Below, piece after piece: positions 1,359-45,055 of a DNA stretch of 50,424 nucleotides. The stretch is from a bacterium (GTDB lineage: Bacteria; Patescibacteriota; Saccharimonadia; Saccharimonadales; SZUA-47). The translations under genes were made by a program, and so were the position numbers. Under the pieces are notes generated by a model. The model was not told the origin of the DNA. It made no database searches and saw only the letters and a list, made by a program, of their open reading frames with translations. Positions within the stretch are counted from its first letter, which is position 1, and every line of letters begins with the position of its first letter. The stretch lies in the NCBI GenBank assembly GCA_030427365.1, contig JAUHWW010000004.1, positions 1 through 50,424 of the forward strand. The letters are read 5' to 3'.

Positions 1359-2801
1359 TTAGATAACCCGTACCTTTATTGTGTCCGTTGTGCCGACTAC
1401 GCCTGGATACTGCCCAGAAGCGGTGACAATGCAGTCACCCTTCTTTAGCACCTTACTCTTTTCAAGCCAAGACGTCAGTTTTGTCGCTGCCATTTTGCTA
1501 TCAGGACGTACATATGATTTGATGCCATAGACAATACATAGTTGCTGTGAGACGCGGGGGACACTGGTGACAGCAATAATCGGTTCATCTGGGCGCTTTG
1601 CTGCAATTTCGCGTGCAGTCGCGCCAGATTTGGTTTCGGCCACAATCGCCGTCGCATTCGTGGCTTTTGCCAACTCAACGACGCTTTTTGAGATCGCTTC
1701 CTGACGCGTGAGTTCACGAAGTCCACTGCGCACATGATACTCAACTGACAAGACGTCTTGGTGACTTTCGGTATACGTCAAGATTTTTTTCATCGTTTTT
1801 ACTACTAACGACGGATGCTTGCCGGCGGCCGTCTCTTCGCTTAGCATGACGCAATCAGCACCAATAATCGACGCAGTCGCTACGTCTGAGACTTCGGCGC
1901 GTGTGGGCTCTGTCGCTTCAGTCATGCTAACAAGCATTTGGGTAGCAATTATGACTGGCTTTGCGTGTGCACGGCATAGCCCGACAATTTTACGAGCTTG
2001 AATAGGTACGACTTCAGGACTCGCTTCAACGGCTAAGTCCCCGCGTGCAACCATCACCGCATCAGCTTCTTTGACAATAGCTTCGATATCATCAAGCGCG
2101 GCCTGCGTCTCGACTTTTGCAATCAATTTAGCTTTGCTGTTTAGGTTACGCATTGCACGTTTCATGGCACGAACGTCAGCAGCTGACTGAATAAAGCTCA
2201 TCGCGACGTAGTCGACATCATGTTCACTGCCAAATGCGAGGTCTTCTTTGTCTTTCTGGGTTATGACATCGCCTGCGAAGTCGGTATCAGGCAGGTTGAT
2301 GCCTTTACGGCTAAGGAGTATGCCATCGTTTTCTGCCTTCGCGTGCACGAGACCGTCTTTGACGCTTGTAATCGTTGTAAGCACTTTACCGTCAAACAGC
2401 ATCATCCGTTCGCCTCGTTTGACCTTTTTACTGAGGTCAAATTGCGTTGGGATGTACTGCGCCTCATCTTCTTTCGGATTATATTTAAACGTAAGCTGCT
2501 GCCCTTTTCTAACCGTTATGATGCCGTCACAATCTCCGAGACGAATCTTTGGTCCTTGCAGATCTTGCACGATTGCGACCGGTTTGCCATATTCCTTTGA
2601 AGCTTTTCGAATCCACTTTATCTGTTTCACCCGTTCATCATTTGAGCCATGGCTAAAATTGAGACGAATACCGTTCGCTCCAGATTTGATAATCTCAAGA
2701 ATTTCATCATAGGTATTTGATGCAGGACCAATTGTGGCTAAGATTTTTGTACGCTTAAATGACGCGATAGGCACATTGGGTGCCTTCTCTGTTGTTTTCA
2801 T
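1359..2801 (-). CDS. pyk: Pyruvate kinase
   Basis: RTKILATIGPAS, RLNFSHG, DLQGPKIR, AKVE, MVARGDL, ATQML, PTRAEVSDV and MLSEETA motifs. Confidence 0.98.
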   Translation of the reverse strand: MKTTEKAPNVPIASFKRTKILATIGPASNTYDEILEIIKSGANGIRLNFSHGSNDERVKQIKWIRKASKEYGKPVAIVQDLQGPKIRLGDCDGIITVRKGQQLTFKYNPKEDEAQYIPTQFDLSKKVKRGERMMLFDGKVLTTITSVKDGLVHAKAENDGILLSRKGINLPDTDFAGDVITQKDKEDLAFGSEHDVDYVAMSFIQSAADVRAMKRAMRNLNSKAKLIAKVETQAALDDIEAIVKEADAVMVARGDLAVEASPEVVPIQARKIVGLCRAHAKPVIIATQMLVSMTEATEPTRAEVSDVATASIIGADCVMLSEETAAGKHPSLVVKTMKKILTYTESHQDVLSVEYHVRSGLRELTRQEAISKSVVELAKATNATAIVAETKSGATAREIAAKRPDEPIIAVTSVPRVSQQLCIVYGIKSYVRPDSKMAATKLTSWLEKSKVLKKGDCIVTASGQYPGVVGTTDTIKVRVI

Positions 2802-5335: not shown

Positions 5336-5373
5336 ACAAAATACCTCAGCTTTAGCTGGGGTTTTTTGTTGGT
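5332..5373 (+). terminator. Intrinsic terminator-like hairpin after tRNA-Glu
   Basis: ACCAACAAAA-T-ACCTCAGC loop GCTGGGGT-T-TTTTGTTGGT; the stem extends into the tRNA ACCA end. Confidence 0.75.
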
Positions 5374-5519
5374 ATCCAAGAGCAAGCCAACTGCTTGGCT
5401 TGCGTGGGGTCGAACGGGCGCAAGCCTTGTTTGCCAAGAAGGTGGCAAACGGCGCGCCGGGCTCGTGAGCAAATTGCAAAGCAATTTGACTTGTGAGTTG
5501 ATTCCTCTTGAGATCACCA
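5374..5519 (+). repeat. Structured tRNA-Glu satellite ending in a duplicate of the tRNA 3' end
   Basis: 5500-5519 matches tRNA 5316-5335 at 19/20 nt; hairpins GCAAGCCAA/TTGGCTTGC, GTTTGCCA/TGGCAAAC and AAATTGC/GCAATTT. Confidence 0.85.
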
Positions 5520-28716: not shown

Positions 28717-28793
28717 GGGCCATTAGCTCAGCTGGTTAGAGCATCGGCCTCTTAAGCCGAGTGTCCTGGGTTCGAGTCCCAGATGGCCCTCCA
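28717..28793 (+). tRNA. tRNA-Lys(CTT)
   Basis: Anticodon arm TCGGC-CTCTTAA-GCCGA; GGTTCGAGTCC; encoded CCA. Confidence 0.97.
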
Positions 28794-28864
28794 ATCAAAT
28801 AAGCTCCCTCGTGGGGCTTTTCTGATTGGAACTATTAACTAGGCTTGAACCCAGGTGTCCTGGG

Positions 28865-28950
28865 TGAAAACTGCCAGTGGAAGTTTGCAAGGAAATCTTC
28901 ACCTGAAAGTTTGCTTTCATGGCAGAAGTTTCGGGGTCGCCAAAGGTGAC
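28865..28950 (+). repeat. Three-hairpin tRNA-associated element, Lys copy (86 nt)
   Basis: Flanked by GTGTCCTGGG (28855-28864) and CGAGTCCCAGACGGCCCT (28951-28968), i.e. a tRNA-Lys 3' duplicate with the T-loop TT replaced. Confidence 0.88.
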
Positions 28951-28973
28951 CGAGTCCCAGACGGCCCTTCTTG

Positions 28974-29006
28974 CAAAAAAGCTCCTTGGAGACAAGGAGC
29001 TTTTTG
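28974..29006. terminator. Bidirectional intrinsic terminator
   Basis: AAAAAGCTCCTTG-GAGA-CAAGGAGCTTTTT. Confidence 0.85.
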
Positions 29007-36661: not shown

Positions 36662-36821
36662 AATTGTCTTGAAAGTATACGTGAAGCTAGATCATGGGGT
36701 TCAGTATACGCCAGCTGTTTCTATGCTCCTAGCGTAGAAAACACAATGAAACTTACAATATATGCATTTCGTGATATATTTTTGCATAATTATCGTTTAT
36801 TTAGTGCTATACTTGTTGCTT

Positions 36822-38357
36822 ATGGATACAAAAGACACTTCTCAAACTAATGCCCGCCTTGGCGGTCTGATATCAGAAATTCGACAGATTCGTGGACTAA
36901 CTCAGAGTGAGTTTGCTCGTCAACTTGGCACCTCTCAATCAGCTGTTAACCGCATTGAAAAAGGCAAGCAGAACTTGTCTTTGGATATGCTTGGACGCAT
37001 TAGCGAAGTCTTGGAAAAACCCCTCATTGCTGTTGGCAATCAAGGAGTTAACCTCAAGATAGAAGGCGGGCGTGAACTCTCTGGTGAGATTACTCTTAAG
37101 ACCAGCAAAAATGCCGCCGTTGGATTGCTCTGCGCAAGCCTCCTTAACCACGGCAAGACGACGTTCAAAAATTTTCCACGTATCGAAGAAGTATTTCGTA
37201 TCATTGAAGTGCTTGAGAGCATCGGCGTCAAAGTGCGCTGGCTGCCTGGCAACGACTTAGAAATCAAGCGGCCGGTAAAACTAAAGATGGATCAGCTTGA
37301 CGGTAAAGCAGCGCGAAAAACGCGCTCAGTACTCATGATGATTGGTCCGCTGGCAAAAGAACTATCGGATTTCAAAATTCCCTACGCTGGTGGTTGTAAA
37401 TTAGGTGAACGCTCGGTCAAACCACACCTGTATGGACTCGAGGAATTCGGCGTTGATATCGTCGCCAAGGATCGCTACTACCATGTGCAGACGAACTATC
37501 AACAGCCAGAGCATCTCGTCATGTACGAATCAGGCGATACGGTTACCGAAAACGTTCTTATGGCAGCCGCATATACGCAAAAAACGACACTGCAGTTTGC
37601 GAGTGCAAACTATATGGTGCAGGACGTTTGTGGCTACCTGGAAGCACTTGGCGTGAAAATCGAGGGTCGCGGCAACACAACCATGACTATTCACGGCGTC
37701 AAAAAACAGATAAAAAAAGATATTGTGTACGCGCCGGCAGAAGATCCGATCGAAGCAATGTTCTTTGTCTCAACGGCTTTGACAACCAATTCTGAAATAA
37801 CTATCAAGCGCGTGCCGATTGATTTTATGGCACTCGAGCTCCTAAAGCTGGAAAAGATGGGTGCTCGCTTTACCATCAGCAAACGCTACAAAGCTAAGAA
37901 TGGCTTTACTGACCTGGTTGATGTGACCGTGCACAAGCATGATGGCCAACTCAAAGCGCCAACCGGAAAAGTCTATTCACGGCCTTACCCGGGTCTCAAC
38001 ATGGATAACTTGCCTTACTTCGTCCCTATTGCGGCGGTAAGCCGCGGCCGCACCCTGATCCATGACTGGTCATTTGAGAACCGCGCAATTTACTACACCG
38101 AGCTCACCAAAATCGGAGCGAATATTGACTTAGCCGATCGTCACCGCGTCTATATTTCTGGACCGACATCGTTCAGGGCAGCCGACCTTGCGTGCCCTCC
38201 AGCGCTCAGGCCAGCAAGCTTACTGCTTATTGGTATGATGGCTGCCAAAGGCACATCTATGCTGCGAAATGTCTACACGATTAACCGCGGTTATGAGGAT
38301 ATTGCCAAGCGCCTTAACTCACTCGGCGCAAATATCGAAGTGGTGCACGATCTTTAA
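36822..38357 (+). CDS. murA: XRE-HTH fused UDP-N-acetylglucosamine 1-carboxyvinyltransferase
   Basis: N-terminal HTH (LTQSEFARQLGTSQSAVNRIEKG); SKNA, GGCKLGER, DPIEA, PYPG and RGYE motifs. Confidence 0.93.
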   Translation: MDTKDTSQTNARLGGLISEIRQIRGLTQSEFARQLGTSQSAVNRIEKGKQNLSLDMLGRISEVLEKPLIAVGNQGVNLKIEGGRELSGEITLKTSKNAAVGLLCASLLNHGKTTFKNFPRIEEVFRIIEVLESIGVKVRWLPGNDLEIKRPVKLKMDQLDGKAARKTRSVLMMIGPLAKELSDFKIPYAGGCKLGERSVKPHLYGLEEFGVDIVAKDRYYHVQTNYQQPEHLVMYESGDTVTENVLMAAAYTQKTTLQFASANYMVQDVCGYLEALGVKIEGRGNTTMTIHGVKKQIKKDIVYAPAEDPIEAMFFVSTALTTNSEITIKRVPIDFMALELLKLEKMGARFTISKRYKAKNGFTDLVDVTVHKHDGQLKAPTGKVYSRPYPGLNMDNLPYFVPIAAVSRGRTLIHDWSFENRAIYYTELTKIGANIDLADRHRVYISGPTSFRAADLACPPALRPASLLLIGMMAAKGTSMLRNVYTINRGYEDIAKRLNSLGANIEVVHDL

Positions 38358-38923
38358 GCATCAGCTTGCAGGCGAGCAATAATTTCCTTGATCTGCGCTT
38401 CTATGTCTCCGGCGCCATCGACTTTGATAACGCTATATCCCTCGTTCTCAAAAGATACGTAGTCACGCGTAAATCTATCAAAGTGCTCTGACGGCACGTC
38501 GTGCCCTCCGCCCGCGGCGCGCTCTGCTACGCGCTGCTTTGCTAGTTCTGCGTCAATCTCCACCTCAACGACAAGAAGCGGCAGTGATTTACCGTGTTGC
38601 TTGGCATGATTGGTAAGATTACGAATCGTTTTCTGAAACCCATCAAGATTGGTAAACGCTTGATTCCAGATGATAATCTGATTATTTTCAATCCCCTCGT
38701 GAGCTTGCCGGCGCAAAAATCGGTATGGGTAGAATTTTTCATCAACCCCTTCAGAACGCAGCTCCTCGACCATCGTTTTGTACGACTGACTTTCATAATC
38801 AATCGCATCAGGGTCAAGGACAACGCAAGCAGCAATACCGAGTCGTTCAGCAAGAATCTCGGTAACATACGATTTGCCACTGCCTGGTATGCCGCGCACT
38901 AAAATAAGGTATGGTTTCGTCAT
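38354..38923 (-). CDS. P-loop NTPase/kinase (AAA_33 / zeta-toxin-like)
   Basis: RGIPGSGKS Walker A; RVAERAAGGGHDVP lid motif. Confidence 0.8.
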   Translation of the reverse strand: MTKPYLILVRGIPGSGKSYVTEILAERLGIAACVVLDPDAIDYESQSYKTMVEELRSEGVDEKFYPYRFLRRQAHEGIENNQIIIWNQAFTNLDGFQKTIRNLTNHAKQHGKSLPLLVVEVEIDAELAKQRVAERAAGGGHDVPSEHFDRFTRDYVSFENEGYSVIKVDGAGDIEAQIKEIIARLQADA

Positions 38924-38990
38924 AATTACCATTAAATAGTACCATTGCCTGTGCTAAAGTACCTGCTAGACTAACCAAAACGGAAGCATT

Positions 38991-41601: not shown

Positions 41602-41626
41602 GCCCTGGTAGCTCAGCGGATTAGAG
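41602..41626 (+). repeat. Exact duplicate of tRNA-Arg(TCT) nt 1-25
   Basis: GCCCTGGTAGCTCAGCGGATTAGAG is identical to 41783-41807. Confidence 0.95.
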
Positions 41627-41713
41627 TGAGGGATGCCTATGGCATGCCGCAAGGAGACTTTCCTCATCAATCTATGATTGATTGAGCGAAATCTCGGGGT
41701 CGCGGAACGTGGC
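41627..41713 (+). repeat. Three-hairpin tRNA-associated element, Arg copy (87 nt)
   Basis: TGA-GGGATGCC/GGCATGCC-GCAAG-GAGACTTTC...GAAATCTC-GGGGTCGC-GGAAC-GTGGC; tRNA sequence GCGGG resumes after it. Confidence 0.85.
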
Positions 41714-41782
41714 GCGGGTTTCCCGCTGCTCGGACCAAACCCATTCACACAATTTAACAACAAATGGTTCCTTAATTGATAC

Positions 41783-41859
41783 GCCCTGGTAGCTCAGCGG
41801 ATTAGAGCAGCGGGCTTCTATCCCGCGTGTCGGGGGTTCGACTCCCTCCCAGGGTACCA
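41783..41859 (+). tRNA. tRNA-Arg(TCT)
   Basis: Anticodon arm GCGGG-CTTCTAT-CCCGC; GGTTCGACTCC; CCA. Confidence 0.96.
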
Positions 41860-43086: not shown

Positions 43087-43740
43087 TCAGGCAAGTGAGT
43101 TTATGAATATGACGGTAAAGAGTGGCGTAAATAGGTTGTCAGACCCGTATGGTGAGCTGTTCTCAAGGACAGTCGCAACTGCTGGCAACAACACCAGCAT
43201 CGCAAGCATGTTATTTTCAATTGTTTCTTGTCCGCCGATACCCCAGGCAATAGCGATTGATACGTACACTAGAGCAATATAGGCGACAGTGCCTGCGATA
43301 CTTTTTCGGAGGTTTTTCTTGCCAAAAACGTAATAGCTGTTGCTGCCGCCCCAGAACCGTCCTACAACCGCGGCGCCGCCATCAGCAAGCGCCATTAGTA
43401 AGATAGCCAGGGTGAACACCCAGGGCTCACGCGTAAGCAACGCGCAAAAAGCCATAGAAAGGGCAAAGAACAACTCGCCGTAAGTTCGCCGCTTTACCGC
43501 GTAAATCGCGTGAATGAGGCCAGTTGTACGCGAATAAATGAGCACGTTAAATCCGACCAAACTAAGCAGGAATATCACCTCAAGCGGGATGTAGTGCGGC
43601 CAAAATGCCATCCACATGCCCGCCAAAATATGTATAAATTTGCGTGCACGCTCGCCTTTCACAACACCTTTACGCCATAGTGCTTCTGAAATTAGCAAGA
43701 CGAGGCCAACCGGCAACAAGGCAATGAGAAGTTTTAACAC
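43087..43740 (-). CDS. Polyprenol/phytol kinase-like membrane protein (CTP-dependent family)
   Basis: RKFIHI, ADGGAAVVGR, KSIAG and GSDNL motifs. Confidence 0.85.
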   Translation of the reverse strand: MLKLLIALLPVGLVLLISEALWRKGVVKGERARKFIHILAGMWMAFWPHYIPLEVIFLLSLVGFNVLIYSRTTGLIHAIYAVKRRTYGELFFALSMAFCALLTREPWVFTLAILLMALADGGAAVVGRFWGGSNSYYVFGKKNLRKSIAGTVAYIALVYVSIAIAWGIGGQETIENNMLAMLVLLPAVATVLENSSPYGSDNLFTPLFTVIFINSLA

Positions 43741-43802
43741 AATGCATCGATTATAACACTGGTAACACCAGCAGATCTGCGGTATAATCGTCTGAGTAAT
43801 TT

Positions 43803-43827
43803 CGGGGTGTAGCTCAGTTGGCTAGAG
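43803..43827 (+). repeat. Exact duplicate of tRNA-Pro nt 1-25
   Basis: CGGGGTGTAGCTCAGTTGGCTAGAG is identical to 43972-43996; both are preceded by ATTT; TATAAT at 43783. Confidence 0.95.
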
Positions 43828-43914
43828 TGAGAGCCGTCGGTGACGGGTCGCAAGGGAACCCACTCTTGAAAACTTGTTTTTCAAAGATGTGGTGACGGGG
43901 TCGCCGGAGGTGAC
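43828..43914 (+). repeat. Three-hairpin tRNA-associated element, Pro 5' copy (87 nt)
   Basis: TGA-GAGCCGTC/GACGGGTC-GCAAG-...TGAAAA-CTTG-TTTTTCA...-GGGGTCGC-CGGAG-GTGAC; tRNA sequence CGCGGTTTGG resumes at 43915. Confidence 0.88.
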
Positions 43915-43971
43915 CGCGGTTTGGCCCAAACCTGACCGAAATGTCACTAAACTAATTTACAATTTATATTT

Positions 43972-44048
43972 CGGGGTGTAGCTCAGTTGGCTAGAGTGCG
44001 CGGTTTGGGACCGTGAGGTCGGAGGTTCAAGTCCTCTCACCCCGACCA
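43972..44048 (+). tRNA. tRNA-Pro(TGG)
   Basis: Anticodon arm CGCGG-TTTGGGA-CCGTG; GGTTCAAGTCC; CCA. Confidence 0.97.
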
Positions 44049-44119
44049 AATAAAGATCCGTCCGTTTGGACGGTTTTTTATTTGGTTTCTGAGGGATGAG
44101 ATGGGCTTGAACCGTTAGG

Positions 44120-44209
44120 TGAGAAGTGCCATAAGCGCACTTCGCAAGAGAATCTTTCAGCTATGAAACTTGTTTCATGCTTGAAAGTTCTGGGCCCGCA
44201 GAATGTGGG
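44120..44209 (+). repeat. Three-hairpin element, Pro 3' copy a (90 nt)
   Basis: TGA-GAAGTGC/GCACTTC-GCAAG-AGAATCTTTCAG...TTGAAAGTTCT-GGGCCCGC-AGAAT-GTGGG; followed by an exact 21-nt tRNA-Pro 3' end (44210-44230). Confidence 0.88.
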
Positions 44210-44315
44210 CAAGTCCTCTCACCCCGACCAAAGAAAAGAGTCGTCCAAATGGACGGCTTTTTTCTTTGATTAGAGGTAGGATTTGTAGCTCAAACCTCAC
44301 GGAGTGAGTCGGAGG

Positions 44316-44413
44316 TGAGGAGTGCTGCGTCTAGCACTCCGGAAACCCGGAAGCAGATTTTGAACTTGCTTCAAAGTCTTTTGAGGGCGGGGCGGGACTC
44401 GGCTGAATCCGCC
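44316..44413 (+). repeat. Three-hairpin element, Pro 3' copy b (divergent)
   Basis: Preceded by tRNA-like GTGAGTCGGAGG; TGA-GGAGTGCT/AGCACTCC-GGAAA-...TTTGAA-CTTGC-TTCAAA...-GGGGCGGG/TCCGCC. Confidence 0.6.
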
Positions 44414-44435
44414 AGCTGGCAGATCACCGAGATCG

Positions 44436-44521
44436 TGACAAAGTCCGGTGGCATTCTGCAAGGCAATCTTCTTCATCAAACTTACTGGATTGAACGAAGT
44501 TGCGGGGTCGCTGAAAGTGAC
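44436..44521 (+). repeat. Three-hairpin element, Pro 3' copy c (86 nt)
   Basis: TGA...GCAAG-GCAATCTTC...GAAGTTGC-GGGGTCGC-TGAAA-GTGAC, followed by degenerate tRNA-Pro end CAAGTCC...CCCCGACCA (44522-44543). Confidence 0.85.
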
Positions 44522-44545
44522 CAAGTCCAGTATGCCCCGACCAAT

Positions 44546-44575
44546 AAAAAATGACCGTACCCATGGTCATTTTTT
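44546..44575. terminator. Bidirectional terminator
   Basis: AAAAAATGACCGT-ACCC-ATGGTCATTTTTT. Confidence 0.8.
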
Positions 44576-44593
44576 AGTATCGCTATGTGCTAC

Positions 44594-45055
44594 TTACTGT
44601 TCACTACTCTGAGTATCTTCAACCTCAGGCTGCGTTGCCTGTTCTTCTTGCGACTGGCGAAGCTGATCGGTGTTAACAATTGGTGCGATATTTATGATCT
44701 TCGTCTCGCTGGCACGATAAATAATAGCGCGCTGGGGATACAGAACCAGGTAATCACCGGCCTGGATGTTCTCATAAAAATCAGGGTTACTCTGCTTTAA
44801 AATCTCTGGATCTTCGACGCGAGCGACGGTTGGGTTTTCATCAGATAGCAATAATACCTGACCGAGACTGCCCACTACTTGCTGTGTTTCTTCAAGATTT
44901 CGTTGCTCGACAGCTTCAGTTGAATCTTCTCTCGCCTCTTGAGCCTCATTCCAGTAATAAACAGCTGCGAATAATGACCCAGCGACGATGACAAAGGCAA
45001 CAAGCCAAACCCAAACATGATTTTTAGATGTTTTTTGCTGTGGTTGTGTTTCCAT
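44594..45055 (-). CDS. Hypothetical single-TM protein
   Basis: N-terminal TM; PTVARVED...PDFYENIQAGDYLVLYP..AIIYR region. Confidence 0.8.
   Translation of the reverse strand: METQPQQKTSKNHVWVWLVAFVIVAGSLFAAVYYWNEAQEAREDSTEAVEQRNLEETQQVVGSLGQVLLLSDENPTVARVEDPEILKQSNPDFYENIQAGDYLVLYPQRAIIYRASETKIINIAPIVNTDQLRQSQEEQATQPEVEDTQSSEQ

Follow-up and report, generated by a model that had tools for sequence, protein, structure and literature searches.

Genomic islands and prophages integrate into the 3' part of tRNA genes through tyrosine-integrase att sites, and REP/REPIN and miniature IS200/IS605-type elements are moved by HUH single-strand transposases. Rearrangements in which a segment is reversed, namely, fold-back inversions and duplication/inverted-triplication/duplication rearrangements, are described for yeast and human genomes in the consulted parts of three reports (PMC7467729, PMC3907307, and PMC4352052). 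Full-text searches, within the parts of the papers that they return, brought up no description of elements like those reported here in Saccharibacteria or Patescibacteria.

Here, we describe a structured sequence of about 87 nt with three helices and no encoded protein (Element E, or E) that is located in partial copies of neighboring tRNAs, accompanied by fold-back (inverted) segments of the same tRNA. The window, which is the whole stretch of 50,424 nucleotides analyzed, contains five copies of E that score 78 to 100 bits with the covariance model R1 (Table 1). The observation of fold-back tRNA copies is confirmed. We put the probability at roughly 0.5 that these segments belong, as a fixed part, to a stereotyped DNA-level scar, produced by a mechanism that we infer when E, as a small mobile element, inserts into Saccharibacteria tRNA genes. 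This arrangement, which recurs in about a hundred related species, suggests that DNA can enter essential genes by an undescribed route that does not destroy them.

Table 1. Features of the E units and their tRNA genes in the window
Feature	Position	Strand	Evidence or remark
Inverted tRNA-Glu 3'-arm pieces TGGTATCCAAG and GGGGTCGAAC, split by an inserted hairpin	5370..5415	+	175/1000 shuffles
Different, unclassified element at the same position as E (tRNA-Glu)	5416..5499	+	sequence; no R1 match
tRNA-Lys(CTT), intact gene	28717..28793	+	ARAGORN; Rfam tRNA 70.7 bits
tRNA-Lys terminator hairpin	28801..28819	+	terminator scan, sequence
Inverted (antisense) copy of the uninterrupted tRNA-Lys T-arm site, reverse complement of tRNA positions 49-60	28844..28855	+	score 19, 16/1000 shuffles
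Turn TGT and short direct arm GTGTCCTGG	28855..28863	+	9-nt match ending at tRNA position 53
Element E copy 1 (3' type), GTT of the T loop replaced	28864..28950	+	covariance model R1, 99.8 bits; junctions
Long direct arm, tRNA-Lys from C56 toward the 3' end, one mismatch, CCA lost	28951..28968	+	
Second terminator-like hairpin closing the Lys unit	28975..29005	+	sequence; hairpin in predicted fold
Long direct arm, tRNA-Arg(TCT) positions 1-24, 5' type unit	41602..41625	+	compared with 41783-41859
Element E copy 2 (5' type), GCA between D stem and anticodon stem replaced	41626..41713	+	R1 91.2 bits
Short direct arm GCGGG, turn TTT, inverted copy CCCGCTGCTC	41714..41731	+	score 20, 3/1000 shuffles
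tRNA-Arg(TCT), intact gene	41783..41859	+	ARAGORN; Rfam
Long direct arm, tRNA-Pro positions 1-24	43803..43826	+	28-nt match; plus 5 nt of leader, 43798-43802
Element E copy 3 (5' type), GTG replaced	43827..43914	+	R1 91.4 bits
Short direct arm CGCGGTTTGG, center C, inverted CCAAACC	43915..43932	+	score 16, 42/1000 shuffles; 1-nt-center palindrome
Promoter-like site in the spacer directly upstream of intact tRNA-Pro	43941..43970	+	ATGTCA-18-TATATT, 9/12, consensus match only
tRNA-Pro(TGG), intact gene	43972..44048	+	ARAGORN; Rfam
tRNA-Pro bidirectional terminator hairpin	44058..44073	+	terminator scan
Inverted copy, tRNA-Pro positions 53-72, GGGATGAGATGGGCTTGAACC	44093..44113	+	score 25, 1/1000 shuffles
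Element E copy 4 (3' type, last helix divergent)	44119..44209	+	R1 78.1 bits
Long direct arm, tRNA-Pro 3' end from C56 through CCA	44210..44230	+	then terminator copy, 44242-44255
Inverted copy, tRNA-Pro positions 40-64, second 3' unit	44278..44302	+	score 25, 0/1000 shuffles
Degenerate or variant E-like element	44315..44408	+	R1 only 11.7 bits, E 0.41
Element E copy 5	44435..44521	+	R1 88.7 bits

At tRNA-Lys, the terminator palindrome reaches outward to TCCAATCA (28790-28797) and TGATTGGA (28823-28830), and the inverted copy that follows mirrors the real T loop across the terminator center with a register difference of 0. The short direct arm GTGTCCTGG is identical to tRNA-Lys as far as the insertion site, and the long direct arm on the other side of E begins at tRNA position 57 in linear numbering. 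In the unit upstream of tRNA-Arg(TCT), CCCGCTGCTC is the reverse complement of tRNA positions 23-32, replaced nucleotides included. Downstream of tRNA-Pro, a second 3' unit that the initial annotation had not listed carries an additional inverted copy (44278-44302), followed by the direct arm GTGAGTCGGAG (44304-44314). Downstream of E copy 5 lie a tRNA-Pro 3' end that has diverged (44522-44544) and then a terminator-like hairpin; this copy has neither a left arm nor an inverted copy of its own (spacer score of 11, reached by 534/1000 shuffles). The element linked to tRNA-Glu is followed by a copy of the tRNA-Glu 3' end (5500-5519). The strings and coordinates quoted earlier for these fold-backs are all present in the sequence, among them CCCAGG-TGT-CCTGGG at 28850-28864, GGTTTGG-C-CCAAACC at 43918-43932, GCGGG-TTT-CCCGCTGCTC at 41714-41731, and the tRNA-Pro string GGGATGAGATGGGCTTGAACC at 44093-44113.

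E has the layout GTGA ... GCAAGG ... CGGGGTCGC-N5-GTGAC, with ends that are direct (GTGA ... GTGAC), a hairpin near each end, and a third helix in the center. Matches to R1 were found in 114/121 fetched loci (75/80 and 39/41), nearly all from Saccharibacteria, and at least 96 assemblies carry E, as counted from the accession prefixes among the matches listed with one assembly per prefix. The genome scan used a strict pattern that fixes part of helix 3 and biases the sample, and the copies counted here are those among the matches listed. Within the helices, 95.8% of the cells were paired and 30 of 35 pairs displayed changes on both sides, values that none of 500 shuffles reached. The 87-nt core is a good candidate for a previously unknown structured motif, of either RNA or single-stranded DNA. 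Mismatches inside E were G-U in 64 cases and A-C in 45 when the pair fixed by the search pattern was left out, a difference too weak to choose between RNA and DNA. With Rfam 15 at gathering thresholds, only tRNA passed in the window; at E values up to 10, the region 43700-44700 gave nothing relevant to E; and phage and plasmid collections gave no match to E copy 1 with blastn in distant mode.

Vertical inheritance of E at each tRNA was rejected because the copies do not cluster by tRNA: the closest relative of a copy was found at the same tRNA and on the same side in 6/80 cases, with 2.7 expected by chance. Among 25 pairs of copies from different assemblies with at least 90% identity, 21 were located at different tRNAs, and judging from this distribution, E is mobile. 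The similarity was 0.72 within assemblies (13 pairs) and 0.74 between them, so these 13 pairs give no sign of a recent burst. E is one of several unrelated structured cores with the same architecture, the others being the GGTTTTGC ... GCGATA family and the Glu-linked element of the window. E partly resembles the REP and IS200/IS605 miniatures: it is small and encodes no protein, a hairpin lies near each end, a GT-rich tetranucleotide is conserved at the 5' end, terminal inverted repeats and target duplication are absent, and the strand bias is strong. It differs from them in that no conserved left target tetranucleotide is kept and three target bases are lost, in its third, central helix, and in targeting tRNA genes. 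MITEs are also unlike E, which has no terminal inverted repeats and where three bases are lost rather than duplicated.

E is linked to tRNA genes. Of 129 pattern matches, 103 were located at most 400 nt from a tRNA on the same strand, with a strand bias of 103 to 2, and 41 of these 103 copies lay upstream of the tRNA. Two loci, L029 and L044, may represent targets other than tRNAs. Exactly 3 nt were replaced by E in 74 of 78 scorable cases, and the site has the form RR|GNK|C, where the bars enclose the three replaced bases; across 61 unique sites, G was present at +1 in all 61, C at +4 in 52, and a purine at each of -1 and -2 in 59. Sites were found in the D loop, the D/anticodon boundary, the anticodon loop, the variable loop, and the T loop. 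The units are about 150 to 230 nt long and contain no ORF. In 3' units, the outward arm extends to the tRNA end and the terminator, with up to 60 or more identical nucleotides, and in 5' units, it extends to the tRNA start and a few leader bases, with -10-like boxes preceding the intact gene. The arm that faces the working gene measures only 4 to 12 nt and turns directly into the reverse complement of the uninterrupted site. At two loci (L014 and L079), E is located in the antisense strand of a tRNA-Phe copy and follows the same rules, which indicates that the target is DNA. A single plain insertion, with no duplication, was seen; it interrupts a full-length tRNA-Ala(GGC) (L061). One spare copy (L109) carries two E insertions.

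Several of these properties resemble those of tRNA islands, where the target is also a tRNA, the displaced part is duplicated so that a complete tRNA remains, and direct repeats extend from the T loop past the 3' end. The units might thus be worn attL/attR remnants of integrase-driven islands at the tRNA 3' end, with E as the island terminus. The direct repeat of 3' units, which runs from the T loop through the terminator, is att-like; the flanks of one locus contain a tyrosine recombinase gene and those of another a serine recombinase gene (L001 and L035); and at L080, the displaced 3' half differs from the resident tRNA. However, islands use one fixed crossover in the 3' half, while E units occupy several sites, upstream ones included, and the exact replacement of three bases, the inverted copy of the intact site, the absence of cargo, the absence of an integrase from the window, and the covarying helices of E all speak against such remnants, as does the count of recombinase genes, which make up only 2 of 150 ORFs scanned. 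We consider an origin from islands very improbable.

To evaluate the inverted copies, the spacer was aligned locally to the reverse complement of the cognate tRNA and the score was compared with those of 1,000 dinucleotide shuffles. In the window, the score was reached by 16/1000 shuffles for the Lys 3' unit, 1/1000 and 0/1000 for the first and second Pro 3' units, and 3/1000 for the Arg-TCT 5' unit (41722-41731), so the inverted matches there are better than those of shuffled flanks. Two matches were weak: the Pro 5' match (43925-43932) was reached by 42/1000 shuffles, and the Glu 3' match by 175/1000, which is not significant alone because the match is split by a hairpin. None of six control flanks in the window (the downstream flanks of Arg-TCG, His, and Gly, where there is no unit, and the upstream flanks of Lys, Glu, and Arg-TCG) had an inverted match, with 850 to 1,000 of the 1,000 shuffles reaching the score. 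In related genomes, at most 5 of 100 shuffles reached the score in 41/49 3' units and 23/36 5' units, the remaining 8 and 13 being no better than shuffles, and the cognate spacers also outscored noncognate tRNAs. Nor were such matches equally common at tRNAs lacking E: with comparison tRNAs taken from the same loci, a score of at least 20 was seen in 32/48 E-bearing 3' spacers and 4/47 spacers without E, and in 9/36 5' units versus 5/71 without E (Mann-Whitney P values of 4e-10 and 3e-8 for 3' and 5', respectively).

A more trivial explanation would be that the inverted matches arise by chance or from palindromic terminators in general together with the self-complementary T arm of tRNAs. Part of what was first read as inverted copy does belong to terminators: the inverted core is real, but the outer strings TGATTGGA, TTTATTTGGT, and TTTTGTTGGT are the descending arm of a terminator palindrome. 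Such palindromes reach at least 1 nt into the tRNA 3' end at 18/29 E-less versus 38/40 E-bearing tRNAs and at least 3 nt at 11/29 versus 28/40, and the weak Glu and Pro 5' matches in the window also fit this explanation. Against it stand the margins over shuffles and noncognate tRNAs, the strong excess over E-less tRNAs, and the position of the matches, which are in register and centered on the insertion site, leaving the explanation with hardly any weight. From these alignments, the E-specific part is a core of approximately 15 to 25 nt centered on the insertion site. The core covers -8 to +8 around the site in 29 to 31 of 34 3' units, while outside it, the 3' inverted copy has diverged with its length kept, and the tRNA 3' end is reached by sequence in 4/34. 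The 3 nt that E replaces are present in the inverted copy in 29/34 3' units and 13 to 19 of 21 5' units, and it was therefore copied from an uninterrupted strand.

The direct-inverted-direct geometry proposed for the window holds and generalizes, with an intact tRNA part, an inverted copy, and an element-bearing direct copy following one another. In 3' units, the inverted copy mirrors the 3' part of the tRNA over its full length about the center of the terminator loop, with a register difference of at most 2 nt in 22/27, and the second junction, the fold-back center, is located 7 to 14 nt from E (median, 10). The junction palindrome had a center of 0 to 2 nt in 15/28 detected 3' junctions and 8/19 5' junctions, and a clear palindrome was absent in 11/39 3' units and 14/33 5' units. 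In 5' units, the inverted part is only about 8 to 20 nt and is followed by unrelated spacer, without a long inverted copy or a second palindromic turning point, and one mechanism may not fit both types. The units and the fold-back and inverted-triplication rearrangements, as far as these are described in the consulted parts of the reports, share the direct-inverted-direct order, and in both the junctions coincide with palindromes or short inverted repeats whose spacer is very short or absent. They differ from those descriptions in comprising tens of bases rather than kilobases, in being bacterial and recurring at one class of genes, and in being coupled to a specific insert 7 to 14 nt away that only one arm bears.

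With respect to mechanism, the initial annotation had pointed to hairpin-primed or template-switch synthesis. A strand-switch or hairpin-type DNA event fits the units, but simple hairpin-primed copying of the E-bearing strand does not, as it would lack the replaced 3 nt. In the scar reading that we favor, the first step would be entry of E, as DNA, into the tRNA gene, probably affecting a single strand or a single sister copy. A strand switch or hairpin event at a distance of roughly one helical turn would then draw on the complementary strand, which is still intact. The terminator palindrome could then serve as the second turning point, giving the order of intact part, inverted copy, and E-bearing part, with the net effect that a complete tRNA gene would be regenerated beside the interrupted copy. 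We propose that only events that regenerate the gene survive because small genomes need each tRNA gene. Such a filter agrees with the single plain insertion (L061), with the two insertions in a spare copy (L109), and with the -10-like boxes that precede the gene in 5' units. The inverted copy would be a by-product of insertion and not a regulator.

It had also been suggested that the antisense segment could pair with the pre-tRNA T arm and modulate processing. In a fuller form of this idea, pairing would involve the T arm plus the 3' end within read-through transcripts and would tune RNase P or 3' processing. Such pairing is thermodynamically possible as far as prediction goes: in the minimum free energy fold of tRNA-Lys with its trailer and inverted copy, the T arm pairs with the inverted core (-63.2 kcal/mol; z score of -4.6). 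A role in processing is nevertheless unsupported, given that the segment lies beyond the intrinsic terminator of the tRNA itself, that divergence has affected the portion expected to pair with the acceptor stem, and that mismatches in the fold-back stem, 17 G-U and 19 A-C with both scored alike, include no excess of G-U. In addition, 5' units have a promoter-like box between the antisense part and the tRNA, and tRNAs without E have no such segment and presumably mature normally. We find modulation of processing very improbable, and RNA-level selection on the fold-back stem was rejected on the same mismatch counts.

The inverted core is better kept than the acceptor-stem part, which could mean selection on the core and not neutral decay. 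One possibility is that the core is kept as structure, forming one continuous helix together with both arms of tRNA origin. E would project from this helix at a three-way junction and so have a closing stem, as RNA or single-stranded DNA, in any tRNA context. That the core spans both sides of the site while the remaining inverted copy has diverged with its length kept, that the junction stem is located on whichever side faces the intact gene, and that the predicted fold of the unit is more stable than those of shuffles (z score of -5.0) are consistent with this. However, the stem can be located on either side of E and so lacks a fixed position in its fold, a clear stem is absent in 25/72 units, and the stem mismatches are as unbiased for this role as for processing. 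Moreover, many junction palindromes have a center of 0 to 2 nt, unlike a selected hairpin loop, and the minimum free energy fold of the window unit does not cleanly recover the consensus helices of E. We regard a kept structure as rather unlikely.

Searches with Pfam gave no transposase, integrase, or reverse transcriptase among the 56 ORFs of the window and no recurrent family, these three included, among 150 of 213 flank ORFs, and no HUH (TnpA/RAYT) gene was seen in the 50-kb window or in the scanned ORFs of the flanks of at most 2 kb. No intermediate, pair of empty and filled alleles, or enzyme was seen in the sequences analyzed. A bolder version of the scar reading, which we offer tentatively and hold to be rather doubtful, is that E defines a new mobile-element class whose members home to essential tRNA genes and make up for the damage they cause with the help of undescribed, shared trans-acting machinery. 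E would enter a single strand of the tRNA gene where an RR|GNK|C site is exposed. At a distance of one helical turn, a strand-switch or hairpin step would use the undamaged complementary strand as template, so that a working gene is rebuilt next to the interrupted one, and a small closed intermediate, either circular or with hairpin ends, may take part. The shared architecture of unrelated cores would point to such common machinery, which may act on DNA from other cells, since near-identical E copies are found at different tRNAs in different species.

If true, these bacteria, which are very small and host dependent, carry widespread protein-less elements that enter single-copy essential genes and leave them working. 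Bacteria would then have a new route, marked by a precise and repeatable scar, by which DNA is inserted and genes are duplicated locally, and fold-back synthesis tied to one sequence would have a natural example.

Like group I and archaeal-type tRNA introns, E is a structured insert in a tRNA, often in a loop and in tRNA orientation, and an intron reading was examined. No Rfam intron model matched E, and when E was removed in silico, ARAGORN called a tRNA spanning the site in only 8/119 copies, whereby the reading was rejected. Excision of E would not restore the tRNA, which would still lack 3 nt, and the majority of copies are also truncated; the eight calls came mostly from 5' units with near-complete left arms, and the tRNA-Ala gene at L061 was the only clean interrupted gene.

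For 18 further loci without a tRNA call, Rfam returned only truncated tRNAs, and the apparently tRNA-less loci are mostly contigs that end inside a unit; at L003, L081, and L112, the tRNAs are cut by the contig end. That contigs end at E units indicates that the units break assemblies, and E units can also confuse tRNA annotation in Saccharibacteria genomes.

The strings and coordinates that the initial annotation had reported as fold-back tRNA copies were all found in the window sequence. The order is direct, inverted, direct: an intact tRNA gene, a reverse-complement segment of the same tRNA, and a partial copy of it carrying E, a structured insert of about 87 nt, as at tRNA-Lys (see the table). 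Each spacer between insert and working gene was aligned to its cognate tRNA in reverse complement, and the score was compared with those of 1000 dinucleotide shuffles. The observed score was reached by 16 shuffles at the 3′ unit of tRNA-Lys, by 1 and 0 at the tRNA-Pro units 3′a and 3′b, by 3 at the 5′ unit of tRNA-Arg-TCT, by 42 at the 5′ unit of tRNA-Pro and by 175 at the 3′ unit of tRNA-Glu; six control flanks (3′ of Arg-TCG, His and Gly; 5′ of Lys, Glu and Arg-TCG) gave 850-1000. Across related genomes, at most 5 of 100 shuffles reached the score in 41 of 49 3′ units and 23 of 36 5′ units, in a set where one window unit was paired with the wrong tRNA, and spacers matched their cognate tRNA better than non-cognate ones. 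On the 3′ side, an inverted match scoring at least 20 was present at 32/48 E-bearing versus 4/47 E-less tRNAs of the same loci, and on the 5′ side at 9/36 versus 5/71; the few high-scoring E-less controls contain other inserted elements. The initial annotation had allowed that the matches might be no better than those of shuffled flanks, or equally common at tRNAs lacking E, and these comparisons therefore speak against both.

Coordinates of features in the window and in loci (L numbers) fetched from related genomes by the E pattern scan
Feature	Sequence	Position	Strand	Description
tRNA-Lys	window	28717-28793	+	intact gene
tRNA-Lys terminator	window	28801-28819		from terminator scan
Inverted copy CTTGAACCCAGG	window	28844-28855		reverse complement of tRNA-Lys positions 49-60
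Turn TGT into GTGTCCTGG	window			direct copy of tRNA-Lys up to the T loop, abutting E directly
E at tRNA-Lys unit	window	28864-28950		87-nt insert
Rest of tRNA-Lys	window	28951-28968		direct copy, then second terminator-like hairpin
Variant E-like element	window	44315-44408		degenerate; own inverted copy and short direct arm
Glu-linked core	window	5416-5499		unrelated to E
Fusion gene	window	36762-38357	+	N-terminal helix-turn-helix domain, EPSP-synthase/MurA-type domain
Small ORF	window	38354-38932	-	Zeta-toxin / AAA_33 kinase-like domains
E	L029	63-150		short fold-back alongside
E	L044	1977-2065		short fold-back alongside
E in tRNA-Ala(GGC)	L061	1978-2062		D/anticodon boundary
Partial tRNA-Pro copy	L109	278-465		two E insertions
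E, opposite orientation	L014, L079	about 1978-2065		in tRNA-Phe copy
E with tRNA-Pro 3′ half	L080	around 1978-2064		displaced half after E
Other core	L032			downstream of tRNA-Ser(GCT)
Other core	L050			downstream of tRNA-Arg(TCG)
Other core	L058			downstream of tRNA-Ser(GCT)
Other core	L048			downstream of tRNA-Gln(CTG)

The sequence hosting E is always a copy of the neighboring tRNA. Among the matches listed, 103 of 129 lay within 400 nt of a same-strand tRNA. These comprised 62 of the 3′ type, located downstream of the tRNA at a usual distance of 65-85 nt, and 41 of the 5′ type, located upstream, mostly by 40-70 nt; many different isotypes adjoined E. Two of the 129 had an opposite-strand tRNA alongside, two were remote from any tRNA, and 22 were at loci without a tRNA call, where several contigs end inside a unit. 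E replaces exactly three bases in 74 of the 78 cases that could be scored: the left arm of the copy stops at tRNA position X, and X+4 is the first position of the right arm. The replaced triplet was the T-loop GTT in 47 cases; insertions also fell in the anticodon and variable loops, in the D loop and at the D/anticodon boundary. The consensus of the 61 unique sites was two purines, the replaced triplet GNK and then C, with G at +1 in all 61 and C at +4 in 52, and the +4 base of the target closes hairpin 3 of E. The arm towards the working gene is short (4-12 nt) and the one away from it long, running in the 3′ type to the tRNA end and through the terminator with up to 60 or more identical bases, and beginning in the 5′ type a few bases ahead of the tRNA start. 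The copies in L029 and L044 had no recognizable tRNA or Rfam RNA nearby and may represent non-tRNA targets. Contigs often end inside or next to E units, as in L003, L081 and L112, and a run of N follows a repeated unit in L075; short-read assemblies of Saccharibacteria seem to break at such repeats.

The fold-back geometry is tied to the insertion site, and the inverted copy derives from an uninterrupted template. In 3′ units the inverted match is centered on the insertion site, with positions -8 to +8 covered in 29-31 of 34 units; the three bases that E replaces are present in 29/34, and the tRNA 3′ end is reached, by sequence, in only 4/34. The main rival reading is that this conserved inverted core has a structural role. 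In 22 of 27 3′ units, the inverted copy mirrors the position of the real T loop about the center of the terminator hairpin to within 2 nt. The 3′ part of the tRNA thus makes up, with the terminator and the inverted copy, a single long palindrome in which the acceptor-stem part of the copy has diverged through substitutions with its length preserved. The outer strings quoted in the initial annotation are present but are the terminator palindrome itself, which is also frequent at E-less tRNAs: it extends at least 1 nt into the tRNA end in 18/29 E-less versus 38/40 E-bearing cases, and at least 3 nt in 11/29 versus 28/40. E and the second turning point are 7-14 nt apart (median, 10), and this point is often a palindrome with almost no center. 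Of the junctions detected, 15 of 28 in 3′ units and 8 of 19 in 5′ units had a spacer of 0-2 nt; 11 of 39 3′ units and 14 of 33 5′ units lacked a clear junction. The inverted part of 5′ units spans only about 8-20 nt, and the spacer that follows it often has a -10-like box ahead of the working gene.

Hairpin-primed or template-switch synthesis had been suggested as the origin of these units. Template switching is compatible with our data, but simple hairpin-primed copying of a strand that carries E is not, because E is absent from the inverted copy. We propose that E would enter one strand or one copy of the tRNA gene and that, about one helical turn from E, a strand switch or hairpin event would make use of the intact complementary strand, the terminator palindrome probably providing the second turning point in 3′ units. 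A complete tRNA gene would thereby be kept, and selection would remove plain insertions in essential tRNAs. In L014 and L079, the only opposite-orientation cases among about 105 of the matches listed, a tRNA-Phe copy has E in its antisense strand: E takes the place of GGA, the next base is C, and the short arm and fold-back face the working gene. These cases follow the rules of sense insertions, which argues that the target is DNA and not tRNA molecules. The further suggestion that the antisense segment modulates pre-tRNA processing finds no support: pairing with it is predicted in a read-through transcript, but the segment lies after a terminator, its acceptor part is decayed, and mismatches in the junction stem comprise 17 G-U versus 19 A-C.

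Small, hairpin-ended forms are typical of REP or IS200/IS605-type elements, and E shares this form. Like integrase-driven islands, E units leave the tRNA regenerated. The same junction geometry appears in fold-back rearrangements, as presented in excerpts of three reports (PMC7467729, PMC3907307, and PMC4352052), and partial texts returned by a literature search contained no description of such units. The units do not pass as islands, MITEs or introns when judged by the features that define these.

Comparison of the copies fits movement of E between tRNA loci and between lineages. In 6 of 80 cases, the nearest relative at another locus shared both the tRNA and the side, mean identity was 0.75 at the same and 0.74 at different tRNAs, and 21 of the 25 pairs at least 90% identical between assemblies were at different tRNAs. 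Strict vertical descent was rejected, as copies are not grouped by tRNA, and a recent within-genome burst fits poorly, since copies within an assembly are no more alike (0.72 versus 0.74 between assemblies, with only 13 within-assembly pairs). No transposase, integrase or reverse transcriptase was found in the window. No protein family recurred in the flanks, where 150 of 213 ORFs were scanned, and phage and plasmid collections gave no match to E.

Three helices with 35 pairs make up the fold of the five window copies of E, and in these copies alone 22 of the pairs change on both sides. The consensus order is GTGA, hairpin 1, GCAAGG, a long bipartite helix 2, CGGG and hairpin 3 (GTCGC-N5-GTGAC), and no family in Rfam 15 matched it. 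R1, the covariance model built for E, scored these copies at 78-100 bits (its E-values are rough); the next-best match was the variant element at tRNA-Pro, with 11.7 bits. This element lies between two canonical units; tRNA-Pro thus has a single 5′ unit and a stack of three 3′ units. One strict exact-pattern scan of species-representative genomes yielded at least 121 loci, and among the matches listed R1 confirmed E in 75 of the first 80 and 39 of the other 41, the remaining 7 being chance pattern matches in non-CPR genomes. Confirmed loci among these matches were mostly labeled Saccharibacteria, Saccharimonadales, Saccharimonas or Patescibacteria, the rest including "bacterium" and "uncultured bacterium." E is genuine in L086, a MAG labeled Burkholderiaceae (89 bits), and L011, labeled Parcubacteria (88 bits), which may reflect mis-binning or a broader range of hosts. 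Over 86 R1 matches, 95.8% of helix cells were paired and 30 of 35 pairs changed on both sides, in an alignment fitted to R1 and with part of helix 3 fixed by the search pattern; 0 of 500 shuffles and no slid register approached this level of pairing.

Several loci are instructive. The L061 tRNA-Ala is full length with a G3-U70 pair; it has neither a duplicate nor an inverted copy, and the 4 kb of this locus yielded no other tRNA call. Either a dispensable tRNA was knocked out recently, or the case hints that E can be removed from RNA. In L109, a spare tRNA-Pro copy has E at a D-arm site and an anticodon-loop site, and ARAGORN mistakes part of it for a 95-nt tRNA-Thr. The displaced tRNA-Pro half in L080 is clearly unlike the resident tRNA-Pro and resembles the tRNA-Pro(GGG) found in other species, as though a foreign allele had taken the place of the working gene. 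Whole units occur in tandem in L062, L075, L023 and the window Pro cluster. Unrelated cores, in the window and in four other loci, share the order inverted T-arm copy, core, direct copy of the tRNA 3′ end and terminator. One recurrent core opens with a GGTTTTGC...GCAAAAC hairpin and has GCGATA at its end, and the Glu-linked window core is of a further, distinct kind. Because unrelated cores occupy the same architecture, this suggests that several element families use a shared mechanism.

The window has a G+C content of 47%, seven tRNA genes, all on the + strand, and housekeeping genes for phosphoglycerate kinase, pyruvate kinase, Mur ligases and SHMT. Its relatives found via E are nearly all metagenome-assembled genomes labeled Candidatus Saccharibacteria or Saccharimonadales. 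The helix-turn-helix/EPSP fusion recurs in L025 and L040, and L042 encodes the EPSP domain alone. The small kinase-like ORF lies amid cell-wall genes, and the window contains four Mur-ligase paralogues.
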